Positions 13,218 through 33,159 of a stretch of DNA of 64,000 nucleotides are shown here, piece after piece (positions within the stretch are counted from its first letter, which is position 1; every line of letters begins with the position of its first letter). Under the pieces are notes generated by a model. It was not told where the DNA came from. It made no database searches and worked only from the letters and a program-made list of their open reading frames with translations. This stretch comes from an uncultured archaeon (GTDB lineage Archaea; Asgardarchaeota; Lokiarchaeia; Sigyniarchaeales; SOKP01), in assembly GCA_964632315.1 (NCBI GenBank), contig CAZWEM010000008.1:1-64000 (forward strand), given 5' to 3'. The position numbers and the translations under genes are program-made.

Positions 13218-14417
13218 ATGACCGAATTTGAGGATTTTTTCGCATATAATGTGGAAGAAACAGGGAAATATAAAAAGTTAGACATTTCAATAAATGATTT
13301 AGAACATAAACTTAATCCAGAACAAGTTATACTACTTGTTCGAGAAGACTTGCGAAGGATTTTTATTTGGAAAGGAGCTAAATCCCCCGTTAAAAAGAGG
13401 TTTATAAGTTCTAAGGTAGCGAGAGAGCTTCAATCAGATTTAATGGGGAAACATCATTTTCATCATTGTAAGATCGTTTCTATTGATCAAGGAGATGAAA
13501 TGCAAGAATTTCTTGACGCATTTAATCTGGAATCGATGGAAGTCAAAGATAGATTACCTGATATGAGATACGTTCGAAATAGTGAAAAACTAAAAACTAA
13601 AGTTGATCAGATATTTCCTGAGGAAAAAGAATTTAGAATTAATGAACACATTACGTTAAAATTAATTAAGGGGAAAACAGTTATCTTTGTTGATGAAAAA
13701 CCCTTCAATCAATGTAAATATCTCCTTTTGAACCTTACGCATAAAGATTTTACTATGTTTGATGAAATTGAATCTATCGATGAAGCATTTGAGATTTACA
13801 ATAAAATTGATAAAATGCATGAAAGAGCAGGGGATCTAATTGATCCAGAATCAGAATTCATTGGGCATTGTTCAAATTTACAAGCTTGGTATGAACATGG
13901 ATATGATCTTAGAATTTTACATAGTAGCTTGTCTATTCCCTTGTTAAAAAAGTTGGCTTTTTTAGGAGATAAACAAGCAATTATTCGTTTGAAAGAAAGC
14001 ATTGCAACTAGGATTACGTCAAAAAATTTTAATACACTAATTTTTTATCTAAATGAAAAATATTTTAATCTATTTTCAAACGAGGAACTTGAAGTTATAT
14101 TTGAAGAATGGCTTAATAAAGACGTGAAATTTACTTTCATGGAAAAACGAAGATTATGGTATCCCCTTCTCAAGGAAATGATTAAACGAGGAATTTCAAA
14201 AGCAAAAGAAATCCTCAAGAATGAAATGATTTATTATTTGAAAAGACATGATAGTGATGCTTATCGATACTTGATACGAAAAAAATTCTTCCACCTTCTT
14301 AGTTTGGAAGACCTTGAAGAGATTTATGATTTTTTTCCTCAAAATGATCGGTTTAGTTTACGACACATTGAAACCCTCATACTCAAAGCTACATTAAGAA
14401 AGAGAATTCAAAAGTAA
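13218..14417 (+). CDS. gelsolin/villin-like domain fused to an unnamed ~140-aa module
   Basis: VILLV...RIFIWKGAKS...VSIDQGDEMQEFLDAF (gelsolin-like). C-terminal half is homologous to the N-terminus of 29634-31169. Confidence 0.7.
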   Translation: MTEFEDFFAYNVEETGKYKKLDISINDLEHKLNPEQVILLVREDLRRIFIWKGAKSPVKKRFISSKVARELQSDLMGKHHFHHCKIVSIDQGDEMQEFLDAFNLESMEVKDRLPDMRYVRNSEKLKTKVDQIFPEEKEFRINEHITLKLIKGKTVIFVDEKPFNQCKYLLLNLTHKDFTMFDEIESIDEAFEIYNKIDKMHERAGDLIDPESEFIGHCSNLQAWYEHGYDLRILHSSLSIPLLKKLAFLGDKQAIIRLKESIATRITSKNFNTLIFYLNEKYFNLFSNEELEVIFEEWLNKDVKFTFMEKRRLWYPLLKEMIKRGISKAKEILKNEMIYYLKRHDSDAYRYLIRKKFFHLLSLEDLEEIYDFFPQNDRFSLRHIETLILKATLRKRIQK

Positions 14418-23047: not shown

Positions 23048-23407
23048 ATGTCCCAACACACGATTTCAAGAACATTAAGCAAAGCAATCCTCAAGGATGA
23101 AGTTCGAATCAAGTTGAAGATTTGGAACACTTACTTAACTGGAAAATTGGTCAGGTTTGATAATTACATGAATTTAATCGTAGAGGATGCTAAAGAGATA
23201 TATTTTGGACGAGGAGGCAAGAGAAGTAAGGATTTAGGAACGGTTATGATACGGGGGGCATCCGTGATATTTATTGGACAGGATCGGGAAAAACTCATTT
23301 TTGCTGATAATGATGAAGATAAATTGATGCATCGAGACGAATTTGAAGAAGAAGAAGAGGAAAAAGATAAAAATAAAAAAAGCTCAAAATCTGGAGATGA
23401 AAACTAA
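23048..23407 (+). CDS. Sm-like (Lsm/SmAP) RNA-binding protein with acidic C-terminal tail
   Basis: GKLVRFDNYMNL (Sm1); LGTVMIRG (Sm2). Immediately upstream of rpl37e. Confidence 0.88.
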   Translation: MSQHTISRTLSKAILKDEVRIKLKIWNTYLTGKLVRFDNYMNLIVEDAKEIYFGRGGKRSKDLGTVMIRGASVIFIGQDREKLIFADNDEDKLMHRDEFEEEEEEKDKNKKSSKSGDEN

Positions 23408-23608
23408 ATGGGAAAAGGAACACCAAGTAAGGGGAAGAAGAATAAAGCAGCATCTCATAAAACCTGCAGAAGGTGTGGGAATCACTCTTATCATCGCCGA
23501 AAGGGATATTGTGCTAGTTGTGGCTTCGGTAGAACGGCAAAATTACGACAACCTGGTTGGCGAAATCGATACCGTCCCTTTAACGGCAATAAAGGATTTT
23601 ATCGATAA
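23408..23608 (+). CDS. rpl37e: 50S ribosomal protein L37e
   Basis: MGKGTPS.GKKN...H..CRRCG..SYH....CASCGFG. Confidence 0.97.
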   Translation: MGKGTPSKGKKNKAASHKTCRRCGNHSYHRRKGYCASCGFGRTAKLRQPGWRNRYRPFNGNKGFYR

Positions 23609-24402: not shown

Positions 24403-24795
24403 ATGTATGGTTTATTTTATCTCATGAATTCCTATGACATCGACATATTAAAATATGAATTGGATAGGATTTCATCAACCTTAGGAATAATTGGATGTGC
24501 TTTAGTTGAGAGAAACGGCCTTACAATCACTTCAGAACTCCCGAGAACTTTGAATGAAAAAAGTTTAGCTGCCATGACAGCGACAATGTTCGAAGCGATG
24601 GAATCTGCCATCCCTAACAAAGAAAAAATAATTTCCAATATAACGGTTGAGTATGAAGACTATGAAATTTTCATAACTAAAGTAAATGGCCAAGTTTTAT
24701 TTATCGGTTTAATTGAGTATAACATCGATTTGGGATTAATTTTGATAGAAATTGAAGAATTTGTAACTAAAATTTCACAATTATTGGAGAATTAA
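24403..24795 (+). CDS. roadblock/LC7 domain protein
   Basis: GIIGCALVERNGLTITSELP...LAAMTATM...NIDLGLILIE. Confidence 0.85.
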   Translation: MYGLFYLMNSYDIDILKYELDRISSTLGIIGCALVERNGLTITSELPRTLNEKSLAAMTATMFEAMESAIPNKEKIISNITVEYEDYEIFITKVNGQVLFIGLIEYNIDLGLILIEIEEFVTKISQLLEN

Positions 24796-24797
24796 TC

Positions 24798-25550
24798 ATG
24801 TTAACTGAAGAACAAAAAGAAAGATATTCCAGACAGATAAAATCTCCTTCCATAGGTGAGGAAGGCCAGGAAAAATTAAGTAAAGTGAGAGTGCTTCAGA
24901 TAGGGGTTGGGGGATTAGGTTCTCCCTTTTCCTTATATCTCGTAGCTTCTGGCATTAAAGAATTGACGATTGTTGATAATGATACCGTTTCAATTTCAAA
25001 CCTGCAAAGGCAAATATTATACGATGAAACTCAAGTCGGTCAAAACAAGGTCGACATTGCTTTCGAAACATTATCTAAGCTTAATTCAAACGTGGAGCTT
25101 AAAATCTATAAAGAGTATGTCAATGATGAAACTATTTTGAACTTCTATGACGGACAAGACTTCATTGTGGACTGTAGTGATAACATGAAAACTAAATTCC
25201 TTGTAAACAAGACAGCAATCAACACGAGGACAAAATGTGTAATAGCAGGTATCAAAGATTTCTATGGCCAGATAATGACAATCATTCCAGGAAAAACCGC
25301 ATGTTATGAGTGCGTTTTTAATGAACCTGAGGAAGAAAAAGGACGAAAAAATCCTTTACCAGTTATAGGCGTCACGCCAGGGATTCTTGGAACTTTAGAA
25401 GCGTTGGAAGTCATAAAAACCACTTTAGGATTACCAAACCTGGAAAATAGGCTTCTCATGGTTAACTTATTGAACTTATCTTTTGATATGATTGACGTAG
25501 TTAGGAATGAAAAATGTAGTTGTTCAAATTCCTTATCGACTAATAAATAG
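24798..25550 (+). CDS. HesA/MoeB/ThiF (E1-like) adenylyltransferase
   Basis: ERYSRQ; GVGGLG; SNLQRQ; DCSDN; CYEC...CSC. Confidence 0.92.
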   Translation: MLTEEQKERYSRQIKSPSIGEEGQEKLSKVRVLQIGVGGLGSPFSLYLVASGIKELTIVDNDTVSISNLQRQILYDETQVGQNKVDIAFETLSKLNSNVELKIYKEYVNDETILNFYDGQDFIVDCSDNMKTKFLVNKTAINTRTKCVIAGIKDFYGQIMTIIPGKTACYECVFNEPEEEKGRKNPLPVIGVTPGILGTLEALEVIKTTLGLPNLENRLLMVNLLNLSFDMIDVVRNEKCSCSNSLSTNK

Positions 25551-26866: not shown

Positions 26867-28546
26867 CTAATTATAATAACCTGAATCTTCAAGCATTTTT
26901 TTATGGTCAAATGCTAGTTTTAGTTTTTTTAATTCCTCTTTCGAAATTAAAAATACCTCTGCACTATCATCTCCACTTTTCATTTTCTCTTTTCCACCTA
27001 TTATCTTACACTTATATGCCGTAGAGTGCACATTTCCTCGTGGATCTCTCCCTGGATCGTTATAAACTCCAACCTTAGTTTGGATTTTAACGTCTAAATT
27101 CGTTTCTTCTTTGATTTCCCTAATTAAAGCTTGTTTTGGGGTCTCTCCCTTTTCCACGCCACCTCCTGGTAAAGCAAAATAATCTTTATACGGGGGATAT
27201 TTTCTTTTTATCAGCACGACATTGCCATCATCATCTTCAATAATCGCATCAACGGCGTATTGGATTTGGGTTTTATTCCTCATAACTCTCGCATAAATAT
27301 AATAAGTGACAGTGACCACTAAGATCCCGATGATGATGAGACCAATAACGCTATTTAGTAATGTTGCAAGAGTATCACCTTCTTGTAGTGTAAGAGCAAC
27401 CATTATAACACCTGCTAAGTCTGCTAAAATACCAGCTCCAAAAAGAAGGTTTAAGAGATTTAACCCCCTTTCAGTACGTTTTTGATTCTGCTCACTCTGT
27501 TTTTGATATAAGTCTTGGATAGCTTCATAAATCGTTTCAAACTTGTTATTTATTCTTTCAACAATACCATTTATATCAAATTCATTTAAAAGGTATTTCA
27601 AGACCTTGGTATAATGTTCTCTTCTGTTATAATCAAGCTCATTATAGATCACGCTGAGTCTTGTTTGTATTAAACCACGCAATAATCTTAAATTCTTTAT
27701 CTTTTCTTCAATATAGTCTAAGTTTTCAAAAACATCTGTTTGAGACTTCAAGAATAAAAGGTCTAATGATTCATTTATGGATCTTAATGAAAATTGGACA
27801 GCCCTCATTTTTGGAGTTGGTTCGAGCACATATCTTATCATGTAGGATGAGAAAAATTGTTCATAATTATCTTCGGCCATGTAGATAAAACCCGAATTTC
27901 GGCGAATAAAATGTAATTCAGAAAGCCTATTAGAAAGGTTTCCCCGAATCCTTCGAGTGTATAGATCATCAGAATAATCTGGCCACTGTCCGGAGTAAAT
28001 AACCGTCCAATAAGAGATAACTTTCTTGTACTTTTCGATATTTTCAGTTGTCCAGTCTATGTTCATGGGTCTACTACCATTTGAAGTCGCAAAAATGTAG
28101 AGTGGACTTTCTAAATCCATGAGAATTCCTCTATATTCCTCCCTTTTTGACAACTCGATCAAAACTCCAAGGACGAGATAAGGTATTTGTTGAAGGATCA
28201 TTGGATCCATGACTTGCTTTTTGGCAGGATCATCTGGAAAATGATCAACATCAAATTGAAAATAACCTAAAATGTTAAAGCCTCGATCAGAATTTTCATC
28301 TTGATAAGGGAAATTTTCAACATAAGGAACCCAAAAGCATTCAATATTTGTGTTTTGAGCAACTTCTATTATTTTATCCTTGAAATCTTTCCTATAAATA
28401 TCCCTTTCAGATAGTGTATTGAATTTATGCTTAACTGCGCTCTCGATTTCTTTGCTAATTTGATCTCCATCTACCAAACTTGAATTTATGAATGCACTTA
28501 CATAATAAAAAACATCCTTTAGTAAAAATTGTAGATTTTCCGTCAA
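26867..28546 (-). CDS. membrane protein: large N-terminal domain + helical stalk + 2 TM + ADP-ribose pyrophosphatase-type NUDIX
   Basis: Nudix box GGVEKGETPKQALIREIKEETNL; RDPR and LAFDH motifs; two TM helices before the NUDIX domain. Confidence 0.85.
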   Translation of the reverse strand: MTENLQFLLKDVFYYVSAFINSSLVDGDQISKEIESAVKHKFNTLSERDIYRKDFKDKIIEVAQNTNIECFWVPYVENFPYQDENSDRGFNILGYFQFDVDHFPDDPAKKQVMDPMILQQIPYLVLGVLIELSKREEYRGILMDLESPLYIFATSNGSRPMNIDWTTENIEKYKKVISYWTVIYSGQWPDYSDDLYTRRIRGNLSNRLSELHFIRRNSGFIYMAEDNYEQFFSSYMIRYVLEPTPKMRAVQFSLRSINESLDLLFLKSQTDVFENLDYIEEKIKNLRLLRGLIQTRLSVIYNELDYNRREHYTKVLKYLLNEFDINGIVERINNKFETIYEAIQDLYQKQSEQNQKRTERGLNLLNLLFGAGILADLAGVIMVALTLQEGDTLATLLNSVIGLIIIGILVVTVTYYIYARVMRNKTQIQYAVDAIIEDDDGNVVLIKRKYPPYKDYFALPGGGVEKGETPKQALIREIKEETNLDVKIQTKVGVYNDPGRDPRGNVHSTAYKCKIIGGKEKMKSGDDSAEVFLISKEELKKLKLAFDHKKMLEDSGYYN

Positions 28547-29633: not shown

Positions 29634-31169
29634 TTACCAAAAATCTGATAATTTCGTTTGCGGTTTTTCAAACAACCATTTAAGAAAATTAGAAGTAGGT
29701 TTCCAATTCCAAATGCTTTTCTTATTCGTCAGGAATTCAAACTGATTTAAATCTTGATACTTTAAGTTATATTCCTTCATTAAAAGACGAATCTTGAAAA
29801 GCCATTGTACAAAAGCCTTATATAACTGACCATTTGAGCCTGCTTTGTTCACGTGATGAGATTCATAATAATTTATATCATCTTGGGAGAAATTTGAATA
29901 ATAACGATAATTCTGATCATTCCAAAAGAACTGAGATGTACTTTTAACAAATTTATCTATGTTGCAATTCGACATTACAATTGATTCTAATGAGGGATGC
30001 TCACTTAAGAAATCTGGAATTTCAGTTATCTGTCTATTTCCAGAAAGGTCGATCTTTCTCAAGTTTTTGATATCACTAATTCCCTCAAGGCTACATATGT
30101 CGTTGTTACGAAGACTCAAAATCTTCAAGTTATTTAACTTGGTAAAACCTTCTAAAGTACCTATCTTGTTATTATTTAAGTTCAATTTTTCCACATTGGA
30201 GAAGCTCTCAATTCCTTTCATGCTTTTTATCAGATTATTAGATAAATCGAGTTCTTTAGTGTAAGAATATTCATCATCTGGCAATTTAATCTCAAATATG
30301 TTTTTTATATTTTGTTCTCGTAGATCTAGTTTGTCTTTAGTAAAAATGCTAACAATCTTGTCATTGTAGTTTACATACTCTCCTCGATGGTCAAAGTGTT
30401 CTAAATGGGAATTGAGAAACTCGATTATCGGGAAGTTGCGATTGGTTTTGTAAGTTTCATACACAAACTTAACAAATTCTTCCTTGTCATTATTTGAAAT
30501 ACCCTTTATCACGTGAGATAGAATGAATGGGATATTTTGCATCCCCATATATCTCTTGGTAGAATTAATTAGGCCCTTTAACCGTCTATATAATTCTTCA
30601 TTGTTTAGATGTTTTAAAGCTGAAGAAAAGTCGGAAATTAACGTGTTCAGAATCGGAAGCTGATTGTCGTCCAGCAAGCATTCTAATTCATCACGTGTTA
30701 AATATTTCAAATATCCATTATGAATCAAAAACATCATCACGGTATTATGTCCACTAGCATATCTTAGAGCAATTTCCTCTTTGAACCTTTTTCTGGCCAA
30801 CGGATCCCCCGCATCAGTTAGCCTCTTTAATAAGGGAAATGCTAAATTCCTATGCAGAATTCTCGTATCATAATCATTTTCATACCATGCTTGTATGTTT
30901 GAGCAGTGCCCTCGAAATTCTTCCTCAGGAGAGATCTCATAAACACCTCTTCCCCCTCCTTCCATGGATCTATCGAGCATTTCTGCTGCTTCGTCTATTG
31001 AGTCAATGTTATCATATTGCCTGATTCTATTAGTGGGAATGTTCAAGAGAAGGTACATGCATTGCATGAATACCCTATTTTTTACATAAATATGGGTTCT
31101 TCCTTGTTCCAATCTTAATTTAAGAAAGTCATTTACAACATATTCTTTAGAATAATTATTATAATTCAT
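29634..31169 (-). CDS. LRR protein with unnamed N-terminal module and C-terminal Trp-motif repeats
   Basis: LDLSNN/LNLNNN/LSLRNN/IDLSGN repeats. N-terminus homologous to the C-terminal half of 13218-14417. Confidence 0.85.
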   Translation of the reverse strand: MNYNNYSKEYVVNDFLKLRLEQGRTHIYVKNRVFMQCMYLLLNIPTNRIRQYDNIDSIDEAAEMLDRSMEGGGRGVYEISPEEEFRGHCSNIQAWYENDYDTRILHRNLAFPLLKRLTDAGDPLARKRFKEEIALRYASGHNTVMMFLIHNGYLKYLTRDELECLLDDNQLPILNTLISDFSSALKHLNNEELYRRLKGLINSTKRYMGMQNIPFILSHVIKGISNNDKEEFVKFVYETYKTNRNFPIIEFLNSHLEHFDHRGEYVNYNDKIVSIFTKDKLDLREQNIKNIFEIKLPDDEYSYTKELDLSNNLIKSMKGIESFSNVEKLNLNNNKIGTLEGFTKLNNLKILSLRNNDICSLEGISDIKNLRKIDLSGNRQITEIPDFLSEHPSLESIVMSNCNIDKFVKSTSQFFWNDQNYRYYSNFSQDDINYYESHHVNKAGSNGQLYKAFVQWLFKIRLLMKEYNLKYQDLNQFEFLTNKKSIWNWKPTSNFLKWLFEKPQTKLSDFW

Positions 31170-31303: not shown

Positions 31304-32398
31304 TTAAATAATAGTGAGCAGATTAAGATTTATCTCTTTGATTTTATTATTCAATATAGATTCTCGAAGCTCTAGGCCCTCTTTTGAGGATTCAAGAAGC
31401 TTAGATTGACTTATTCCCTCCATCAATACTTTTCTCTCAATTTCTAAAAAACCCATTTCAATGGCACTATTAATTATTAAATTTAACACTAATAATTGAA
31501 ATTGTTCTTGAATTCCTTCCCAAATTAACCCCATCTCTTTTAATTGAGTTGATATTTCTTCAGACATTACGTCCAAGTCATAAATCTCCTCGTAAACGCC
31601 TTCTTGGAGGTTAATAATCTCATCAATCAATCTATCTTTAATCAAACGTTTTGTTGTAGTCCCTAAAAGATCCTCATCATGGAAAAAAAAGTCATTTTCT
31701 CCACGCTTTACTAAGAAAAAACCGAATTCCTTCTTTATCAGCTTGTAACATGCCAAATAATCGATTGCCTCCCGGGGAATGTTAAATAATTCACAAAATT
31801 GATTAATATTTAATTTATACCCTGAAAATTTCTGTGTTGAAATTTCATCAAAGTGCCAATATTTGCTTGCAAGTCTACCTTGGCCCAAAATAGAATTGTA
31901 GAAAATGTAAAAAAGTGATAAGAAGAGATCTCGATCTTGTTGGAGTGTAAAGAAATTATCTCCTATCTTTGAAATGATCCTTATGATATGAATAATGAAT
32001 TGATCCTCAACATTAATTTCTTTATAGAATTCAATTAATCGCTCTAATTTACTGACATTATTTTTAAGTTCATTTATGATGAAGACCTCATCCTTTAGTT
32101 TTAAGGGTCTTTCACCTAACTCATCGATTCCTTTATCAGTAATGACGTAGCACATGTATTTTTTATTAGAATTCTTGTCAGTAACTAATCTTTTTTCAAC
32201 ATTTCCATTTTTTTGATGGAAACTTAGATGATTTGAAACAGTTGACCTACTTAATTGTGAATACTTCAGGATACTGGTAAATCTTTGGGGTCCAAAGTTT
32301 CTGAGGATAAAGAGTAATCTATTCTTATTATCTTCAATACTGCTTGCTTTTTGTAATAATTCACTTTCTAACTTTTTAGAAATACTCCAACTCTCCAT
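31304..32398 (-). CDS. winged-helix (ArsR/MarR-like) DNA-binding protein
   Basis: RFTSILKYSQLSRSTVSNHL...YVITDKG. Confidence 0.75.
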   Translation of the reverse strand: MESWSISKKLESELLQKASSIEDNKNRLLFILRNFGPQRFTSILKYSQLSRSTVSNHLSFHQKNGNVEKRLVTDKNSNKKYMCYVITDKGIDELGERPLKLKDEVFIINELKNNVSKLERLIEFYKEINVEDQFIIHIIRIISKIGDNFFTLQQDRDLFLSLFYIFYNSILGQGRLASKYWHFDEISTQKFSGYKLNINQFCELFNIPREAIDYLACYKLIKKEFGFFLVKRGENDFFFHDEDLLGTTTKRLIKDRLIDEIINLQEGVYEEIYDLDVMSEEISTQLKEMGLIWEGIQEQFQLLVLNLIINSAIEMGFLEIERKVLMEGISQSKLLESSKEGLELRESILNNKIKEINLNLLTII

Positions 32399-32575: not shown

Positions 32576-32773
32576 ATGACGATTGAGAATCCCGATCTCC
32601 TCAGTAGGATCAGATCCATTGAAAAACGATTAGATAAGATTGAATCACGATTGTCCACGATTGAAAATAGATTAAGTCGATCTCCCCTCCATCCACAACC
32701 ATCACCCGAACCATCACGTCCTGATAGGCCACCTGGTCCCCCTGGACGACCACCAGAACCTTTGCGATTTTAA
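32576..32773 (+). CDS. small coiled-coil + proline-rich protein
   Basis: Heptads IEKRLDK/IESRLST/IENRLSR followed by a Pro-rich tail. Confidence 0.7.
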   Translation: MTIENPDLLSRIRSIEKRLDKIESRLSTIENRLSRSPLHPQPSPEPSRPDRPPGPPGRPPEPLRF

Positions 32774-32904: not shown

Positions 32905-33159
32905 ATGGCACAATATCGTTTTCGGTTGACCGGAGTTCCTCCTGATCAAGCAATTAAACTCATTGAAGTTGATCCAAACCAAAGCATAGCAGAAATTAAG
33001 AAAACCGTTCAAAGAGAATACAAATTAAACCCGATTTTGGCGATTCAATTCATTTTTAAAGGTAAAGTTTTACCAGACCAGCTAAAATTTGCTAAAGTAG
33101 GTATCCATCCGAAGAAAGATGTAATAACCGTTATGGCTACTCAAGCGGGCGGTTGTTAA
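32905..33159 (+). CDS. ubiquitin-like (beta-grasp) protein ending -AGGC
   Basis: 84 aa from ATG 32905. IEVDPNQSIAEIKK and QFIFKGKVLPD parallel ubiquitin's LEVEPSDTIENVKA and RLIFAGKQLED; di-Gly near the C-terminus. Confidence 0.85.
   Translation: MAQYRFRLTGVPPDQAIKLIEVDPNQSIAEIKKTVQREYKLNPILAIQFIFKGKVLPDQLKFAKVGIHPKKDVITVMATQAGGC

Follow-up and report, generated by a model that had tools for sequence, protein, structure and literature searches.

The locus raises the question of what two of its open reading frames have in common, and what the common part may do. An earlier note had described, in a gelsolin-like protein and in a leucine-rich repeat (LRR) protein, an unnamed unit of ~140 amino acids present in two copies, C-terminal in one protein and N-terminal in the other. 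The window, that is, the whole stretch of 64,000 nucleotides analysed here, represents contig C8 of a genome of 4.45 Mb in 119 contigs. Both reading frames were confirmed, P0001 with 399 and P0002 with 511 amino acids, and all the sequence motifs quoted for them were found. The corresponding features are as follows.

13218..14417, + strand: P0001, open reading frame of 399 aa, consisting of a gelsolin domain, the module and an extra helical unit
13218..13622, + strand: gelsolin/cofilin-type domain, P0001 residues 1–135 (phmmer against PDB)
13623..14111, + strand: module copy 1, P0001 residues 136–298 (profile E 5.7e-63)
14109..14327, + strand: extra helical sub-unit, P0001 residues 298–370 (profile positions 91–162, E 2.8e-6)
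29634..31169, − strand: P0002, 511 aa, consisting of the module, a helical linker, LRRs and a C-terminal tail
30654..31169, − strand: module copy 2, P0002 residues 1–172 (profile E 2.2e-80)
29940..30272, − strand: leucine-rich repeats, P0002 residues ~300–410 (Pfam LRR_4 and LRR_8)

When the two proteins were compared by BLASTP, residues 137–297 of P0001 and 8–168 of P0002 aligned without a gap, with 68 of 161 positions identical (42%) and an E-value of 2e-38. This similarity is far above chance and is genuine homology, so that the gelsolin-like protein and the LRR protein do share a unit, as had been claimed. Its length is ~160–165 residues rather than ~140, and the genome has four full copies rather than two: two in the window, one on contig C51 and one on C83. 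Besides the module, the protein on C51 contains LRRs, and that on C83 has no Pfam match. The C-terminal half of P0002 carries LRRs, the only part of this protein recognised by Pfam, with both matches above the cut-off (LRR_4, 72.4 bits, E 2.6e-20; LRR_8, 39.8 bits, E 3.8e-10). The module is N-terminal in P0002, as described, but central in P0001, where it is followed by one additional copy of its own helical sub-unit (residues 298–370). The same repeat was visible within P0001 by BLASTP (E 0.002), residues 311–370 resembling the helical tail of the module.

Known relatives were sought by sequence and by fold. Pfam gave no match at E ≤ 1 on the module region of P0001 or P0002. A set of 40 modules searched at E ≤ 10 yielded only scattered chance matches, with no F-box and no PX (PF00787) among them, in line with the original statement that no Pfam name could be given. 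No NCBIfam model matched the module, and searches of PDB sequences with a single sequence and with a profile returned nothing below E 0.1. Foldseek found no match in the PDB at E ≤ 0.001, the best E-value being 0.65 with the module as query and 0.22 with the core. With VIA-wide, the best Z was 3.8 for the whole module (6d7k_H, rmsd 3.2 Å, 57 residues aligned) and 4.7 for the core (6d7k_H, rmsd 3.0 Å, 54 residues). Since models without a true match typically reach Z 7–8 in this search, these fold matches are noise. A shape search of the ESM Atlas retrieved only the family's own clusters (TM 0.87–0.89, all Archaea/Promethearchaeota), the feature search among named clusters of the same resource gave no usable match, and no paper on the module domain was found in the literature. 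The shared stretch is a genuine domain of ~165 residues that is absent from the catalogues.

The family proved to be large. A word-indexed search collected 1,335 module proteins, and an exhaustive profile search gave 2,833 clusters (50% identity), of which 1,839 had E ≤ 1e-30. Among 149 full modules in 143 representatives, 112 were N-terminal, 31 internal and 6 C-terminal; seven of the 143 representatives carried two full modules. Pfam partners were assigned in 105 representatives: LRRs in 31, TPRs in 11 and Ras/Roc GTPases in 7, about half having no Pfam partner at 1e-5. Further forms included fusions to WD40 or Rad51-like domains, tandem-module and very long multi-module proteins, and near stand-alone proteins of ~205 residues. 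In the fusions to Ras/Roc-type GTPases the module lies C-terminal to the GTPase. LRRs, a GTPase and the module were not seen together in any one polypeptide.

The taxonomic spread, in contrast to this variety of partners, is narrow. In a sample of 301 genomes of the Asgard phylum, covering 30 Asgard families, the module was present in 63 of the 68 genomes that belong to the window's own GTDB family, against 4 of 232 outside it. Three of these four belong to the sister family (three of seven genomes); the lone positive among the 225 other genomes has 8% contamination. The module profile had no match in 28 of the 30 families. Many genomes have at least 12 scored copies. Hence, the module is shuffled onto LRR, TPR, WD40, Ras/Roc GTPase and gelsolin proteins within one Lokiarchaeia-type GTDB family, and the description of it as mobile, lineage-specific and attached to different adaptor partners held well. 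Its confinement to one family marks it as a lineage-specific invention, parallel to the adaptor families of eukaryotes and not ancestral to them. It may be noted that NCBI labels on some matches (Thor-, Odin-, Heimdall-, Hermod- and Hodarchaeota) clash with the GTDB-based sampling; the labels naming other Asgard phyla look unreliable, and we trusted the GTDB sampling.

In one Lokiarchaeial family, a large fraction of the LRR proteins have this domain as their constant part. LRR and other solenoid proteins represent an unexplained expansion common to Asgard archaea and eukaryotes, and the function of the Asgard LRR proteins is given as unknown in a 2026 preprint (10.64898/2026.10.28.762692). 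The domain also ties LRR proteins to small GTPases, to a gelsolin-type actin regulator and possibly to a ubiquitin-like protein (Ubl). If its partner were identified, a few recombinant experiments could test what thousands of orphan proteins do.

The anatomy of the module was examined on an alignment of 40 diverse copies (A1, mean column identity 53%) and on an AlphaFold2 model of P0002 residues 1–172 computed with A1, which was confident (pLDDT 86, pTM 0.80). The model predicts four short strands forming a β-meander (residues 8–34), short helices at 46–52 and 58–65, a poorly ordered variable loop at 71–75, a long helix at 81–97 that carries G-H-C-S-N-x-Q-A-W, and next to it a helical unit at 107–168. 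The latter is α-solenoid-like and, by itself, recurs one to three times behind the module in many proteins. When the core was modelled without it, pLDDT fell to 72.7 and pTM to 0.62, and this lower confidence suggests that the core and the first helical unit are one structural entity.

D59, S90, Q93, W95 and Y100 do not vary in the alignment A1; C37, H88, C89, N91 and H106 are present in at least 90% of its copies. Across 330 distinct modules, C37 was kept in 98%, H88 in 96%, C89 in 97% and H106 in 92%, all four together in 290, and W95 and Y100 showed no substitution at all. The Cys and His residues that had been picked out from two copies are thus conserved in the family at large, and the E-F-x-G-H-C-S-N-x-Q-A-W motif on the long helix is near-invariant. 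Neither a match to a known domain nor a loss of the Cys and His residues, the two outcomes named beforehand as speaking against the proposal, was found. Near-invariance extends across all architectures to N13, T25, D59, H88, S90, N91, Q93, W95 and Y100; near-invariant polar residues in proteins of every architecture fit a ligand shared by all modules. As for the position of the Cys and His residues on the long helix, C89 is probably buried, to judge by the periodicity, which places it on the face F85-C89-I92-Y96, with H88, N91 and W95, and likewise S90, Q93 and E97, on other faces. These residues may function as a metal site or as a catalytic site. Four points are established: this is a real domain missing from the catalogues, it moves between proteins, it hardly occurs beyond one family, and its Cys/His and polar motifs are conserved.

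In the gelsolin fusion P0001, residues 1–135 matched Thor ProGel (7c2f, E 3.9e-5) and Loki 2DGel (7whg, E 8.4e-5) in a phmmer search of the PDB. The Pfam Gelsolin score is 14.3 bits, under the 21-bit cut-off, while several P0001 orthologues have a precomputed PF00626 match. The assignment of the N-terminus as a gelsolin/cofilin domain, despite the sub-threshold Pfam score, is sound on these sequence matches. Among 120 gelsolin-domain matches listed, 52 were P0001-type proteins (400–435 aa, with the module and the extra helical unit) and nearly all of the remainder were proteins of ~265–335 aa without the module. The shorter paralogue occurs widely among Asgard families, its open frames spanning 288–322 aa, and its gelsolin domain is 60% identical to that of P0001. 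At its C-terminus, this ~300-aa paralogue is unrelated to the module (hhalign probability 0.6%). Gelsolin domains that are 60% identical, joined to unrelated C-termini, point to an origin of P0001 by domain exchange, and P0001 seems to descend from a duplicated 1DGelX-type gene whose C-terminal domain was swapped for the module. Like Asgard 1DGelX, P0001 has a single gelsolin domain with an uncharacterised region C-terminal to it. In P0001 this region is the module, to which the C-terminal region of the ~300-aa paralogue, the form used for this comparison, is unrelated. Thor 1DGelX severs actin filaments in vitro, and its domain X was proposed to bind filament sides (Akil et al. 2020, PMC7444086).

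The neighbourhood of P0002 offers a candidate partner for the module. The genes concerned are the following.

24403–24795, + strand: Roadblock/LC7 gene (Pfam Robl_LC7, E 2e-6)
24798–25550, + strand: ThiF/E1-like gene, 2 bp after the Roadblock gene (Pfam ThiF, E 3.2e-69)
31304..32398, − strand: winged helix-turn-helix (wHTH) protein of 364 aa with an ArsR/MarR-like N-terminus (Pfam HTH_5, E 4.3e-5)
32576..32773, + strand: mini-protein of 65 aa, coiled-coil and proline-rich (open reading frame)
32905..33159, + strand: Ubl of 84 aa, candidate partner, ending AGG-C (Pfam ubiquitin, E 4.8e-10)

The order in the window is LSm, L37e (~23048–23608), methyltransferase, Roadblock, ThiF, NUDIX, NadA, P0002, wHTH, mini-protein, Ubl, and the Ubl gene lies 1.7 kb from P0002. 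At the locus of P0021, a relative of P0002, the genes for NadA, an unnamed 435-aa protein, an 84-aa ubiquitin-family protein, ThiF and Roadblock are found, and the window contains the same genes. Orthologues of the mini-protein adjoin the Ubl at three further loci (L029, L067 and L068). In at least 27 genomes from at least four genera, a module gene, mostly the top-scoring one of P0002 type, lies 0.2–4.2 kb from the Ubl. The set of wHTH, mini-protein, Ubl and module-LRR genes has been kept together through three gene orders: the divergent arrangement of the window, seen also in G186; mini-protein, Ubl and LRR gene on one strand (G267); and this operon-like arrangement placed on the opposite flank of the wHTH gene, with a gap of 164 bp between Ubl and module (G138). 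Thus, in two of the three orders the Ubl is followed by the module-LRR gene on one strand, 100–170 bp apart.

There is reasonable evidence here that the P0002-type protein, through either its module or its LRR half, acts jointly with the Ubl. At eight loci of the Ubl orthologue outside the window's family, none of the wHTH, mini-protein or module-LRR genes adjoined it. The Ubl itself is 92–98% identical within the window's family, 74–86% in the sister family and 66–70% in two further families of the class; outside the window's family it was present in all seven genomes of the sister family and in the single genome each of families f3 and f4. The Ubl thus predates the module and has a wider spread, and the two distributions are nested, not matched. 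No Ubl was found near the gelsolin fusion or near three other module genes, so that the link to the Ubl is limited to the P0002 orthologue group. A search for neighbours common to the gelsolin fusion and these three genes gave none; Ras/Roc genes lie nearby but are abundant in the genomes. Fusions of Ubl and module (Rosetta stone) were likewise absent from 18 loci with Ubl domains.

When the module (A1) and the Ubl (A3) were co-folded, the median ipSAE was 0.50 (runs 0.29, 0.53 and 0.50), and the best of three controls reached 0.07. The partner pLDDT was at least 83 and contacts agreed to at least 88% between runs. The mark applied lets through 58 of 80 solved complexes and 2 of 110 mismatched pairs. 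In the range up to 0.60 it is passed by seven of those 80 complexes and by both mismatches, so a pass at such a score is more often wrong than right unless the pairing was likely beforehand. The co-fold therefore lends weak support to the pairing; with the synteny as prior, we put binding of the Ubl by the module at roughly one chance in three.

Which function would fit all this? A constant, mostly N-terminal domain, interchangeable repeats behind it, near-invariant polar residues and a huge family are together best accommodated by a docking module, and we tentatively favour this reading, with the Ubl as candidate partner, while giving it somewhat less than an even chance. The module would link the variable domains, whether for recognition or effector function, to a single conserved partner shared by all, for which the 84-aa Ubl is the best candidate; it is the only candidate with any support, and that support is weak. 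P0002 would then bring targets bound by its LRRs to the Ubl or to the machinery that conjugates it, and what P0001 would bring is a domain that severs actin. Two further considerations weigh against docking. The linkage of P0002 and Ubl could act through the LRRs instead of the module, and the family is young, so that its conservation may come in part from recent expansion and not from a shared ligand.

The logic of such a module resembles that of the F-box proteins, in which a small constant domain, mostly N-terminal, precedes variable repeats of LRR, WD40 or TPR type (FBXL, F-box + LRR; FBXW, F-box + WD40), and which likewise form a very large paralogous family; the candidate Ubl link is a further likeness. 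The F-box itself comprises three helices in ~45 aa and binds Skp1. The module, in contrast, has 165 residues and a β-meander, and neither Skp1 nor a cullin is implicated. No similarity in sequence or fold was found, no F-box structure having appeared among the Foldseek or VIA-wide matches, and the likeness is one of logic only. A bolder version of the docking reading, which we consider unlikely, is that the module founds a set of archaeal, lineage-specific Ubl adaptors or ligases, docking the Ubl or carrying it as a thioester on C89, and that the more than 2,800 LRR, TPR, WD40, GTPase and gelsolin clusters would be substrate receptors or effectors of one Ubl-tagging network.

The conserved Cys and His residues allow a different account, in which C37, H88 or C89, and H106, together with D59, bind zinc and stabilise a small N-terminal cap that closes off the helical/LRR solenoid and has no specific partner. 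Retention of all four residues in most modules agrees with it, as do the N-terminal position of the majority of copies and the way in which the modelled core leans on the solenoid. Structural zinc fingers use close ligand pairs, and the spacing C-x50-HC-x16-H is unlike theirs; H88 and C89 are moreover adjacent in a helix, where it would be hard for both to ligate one ion. The residues nearest to invariance are S90, Q93, W95, Y100 and D59 and not the Cys or His residues. A cap would also leave unexplained the copies behind GTPase and gelsolin domains and the ~205-aa stand-alone proteins. We regard a purely structural metal site as possible but not likely.

Could the module instead be a thiol enzyme of the Ubl pathway? 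It would be either a Cys-dependent ligase (a thioester carrier of NEL/HECT-like type) or a protease that processes the Ubl or removes it from conjugates, with C89 or C37 acting together with H88 or H106 and D59, and the attached repeats would choose the substrates. Besides the conserved Cys, His and Asp, the Ubl is encoded as a GG-X precursor that needs processing, the ThiF/E1-like gene is 4 kb away, and E3 ligases typically form large paralogous families in which the recognition domains vary, as they do here; the weak co-fold with the Ubl points the same way. No protease, DUB, E2 or E3 was matched in fold or sequence, however, and the genome encodes canonical E2 genes elsewhere. C89 is in the middle of its helix and not at the helix N-terminus, and this position, likely buried, is a mild argument against a papain-type nucleophile. 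Degenerate copies lose their Cys and His residues singly, not as a set. The closest parallel among known enzymes would be the bacterial NEL-LRR E3 ligases (IpaH/SspH/SlrP), which likewise combine LRRs with a conserved Cys-bearing domain and a possible ubiquitin-family connection. The NEL domain is C-terminal and all-helical, measures ~300 aa and has CxD as its catalytic motif; the module differs in being mostly N-terminal, 165 aa long and provided with four β strands, in having H-C-S within G-H-C-S-N and no CxD, and in giving no fold match. Taken together, an enzymatic role of this kind seems improbable.

A third possibility, to which we also assign a low probability, is that the module is a homotypic assembly domain, following the logic of death domains, BTB or COR and drawing the LRR, GTPase, TPR and gelsolin proteins together in assemblies for signalling. 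One domain on many signalling-type partners within a single genome would be expected of it, and the representatives with two full modules, as well as the modules placed behind Roc-type GTPases as COR is, are consistent with it; no COR, BTB or death-fold domain appeared among the Foldseek or VIA-wide matches. Roco proteins (LRR-Roc-COR) are the nearest likeness, in that the module is found joined to LRRs and to Roc/Ras-type GTPases and stands directly C-terminal to the GTPase like COR, and they differ in uniting all three parts in one polypeptide. That the module is a PX-like, lipid-binding head targeting its proteins to membranes is very improbable: among the 50 best VIA-wide rows obtained with the core, ~15 are PX domains (covering residues 13–108, Z 2.6–3.8; best 2ar5, Z 3.8, rmsd 4.0 Å over 70 residues; the PX+LRR protein Nischarin, 8esf, Z 3.4), but every Z is below 4 and inside the noise range, neither Foldseek nor Pfam at E ≤ 10 gave any PX match, and the conserved core residues are acidic or polar and not basic phosphoinositide binders.

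With regard to the remaining genes of the neighbourhood, the pair of Roadblock and ThiF genes of the window is syntenic at two other loci (L005 and L067); for the module, this pair is context only.

The ubiquitin-like protein (Ubl) encoded near the module-LRR gene has the form of a GG-X precursor, for which the window has C as the final residue X and some relatives have F. The Ubl gene always has that of a mini-protein beside it, whichever of the three observed gene orders is present:

32576-32773 (+): 65-aa mini-protein, coiled-coil heptads at the N-terminus and a proline-rich tail at the C-terminus
32905-33159 (+): Ubl, GG-X precursor

One possibility is that the mini-protein acts as a polyproline ligand (profilin or SH3-like binding). 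Alternatively, it could serve as a substrate or cofactor of the Ubl.

Ubl-like domains were also found embedded in very long open reading frames (420 to ~4,000 aa) of related genomes (contig G313:C1 and genomes G138, G282 and G315; loci L013-L028). The module was absent from all of these long frames.

Another gene pair of the window is kept in relatives (L005, L067):

24403-25550 (+): Roadblock/LC7 gene, then a 250-aa ThiF/E1-like gene, with 2 bp between them

The ThiF/E1-like protein carries a Cys-rich motif at its C-terminal end. Such an association between a GTPase-regulator fold and a Ubl-activating enzyme is unusual.

In the window's genome, a gelsolin domain is encoded by at least two additional genes, whose open frames span 314 and 332 aa; both lack the module:

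G000:C40:10674-11045 and G000:C14:19893-20210: widespread type, gelsolin plus C-terminal domain X

Module-bearing proteins come from MAGs labelled at NCBI as Thor-, Odin-, Heimdall-, Hermod- and Hodarchaeota. When genomes were sampled by GTDB, the module was almost confined to one family; many of these conflicting labels are therefore probably wrong.

Two further genes were recorded:

26867-28546 (-): 559-aa protein, C-terminal NUDIX domain per orthologue annotation
L049 7582-8667 (-): 361-aa protein with Ras/Roc and Roadblock/LC7 domains in one chain, beside a Ras-module gene

In the 559-aa protein, a long stretch without assigned domain and hydrophobic segments lie N-terminal to the NUDIX domain, and the adjoining of its gene by NadA is conserved in relatives. 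The neighbours of the 361-aa protein gene are a response regulator and the Ras-module fusion P0092, and a TIR-domain protein is also encoded close by.
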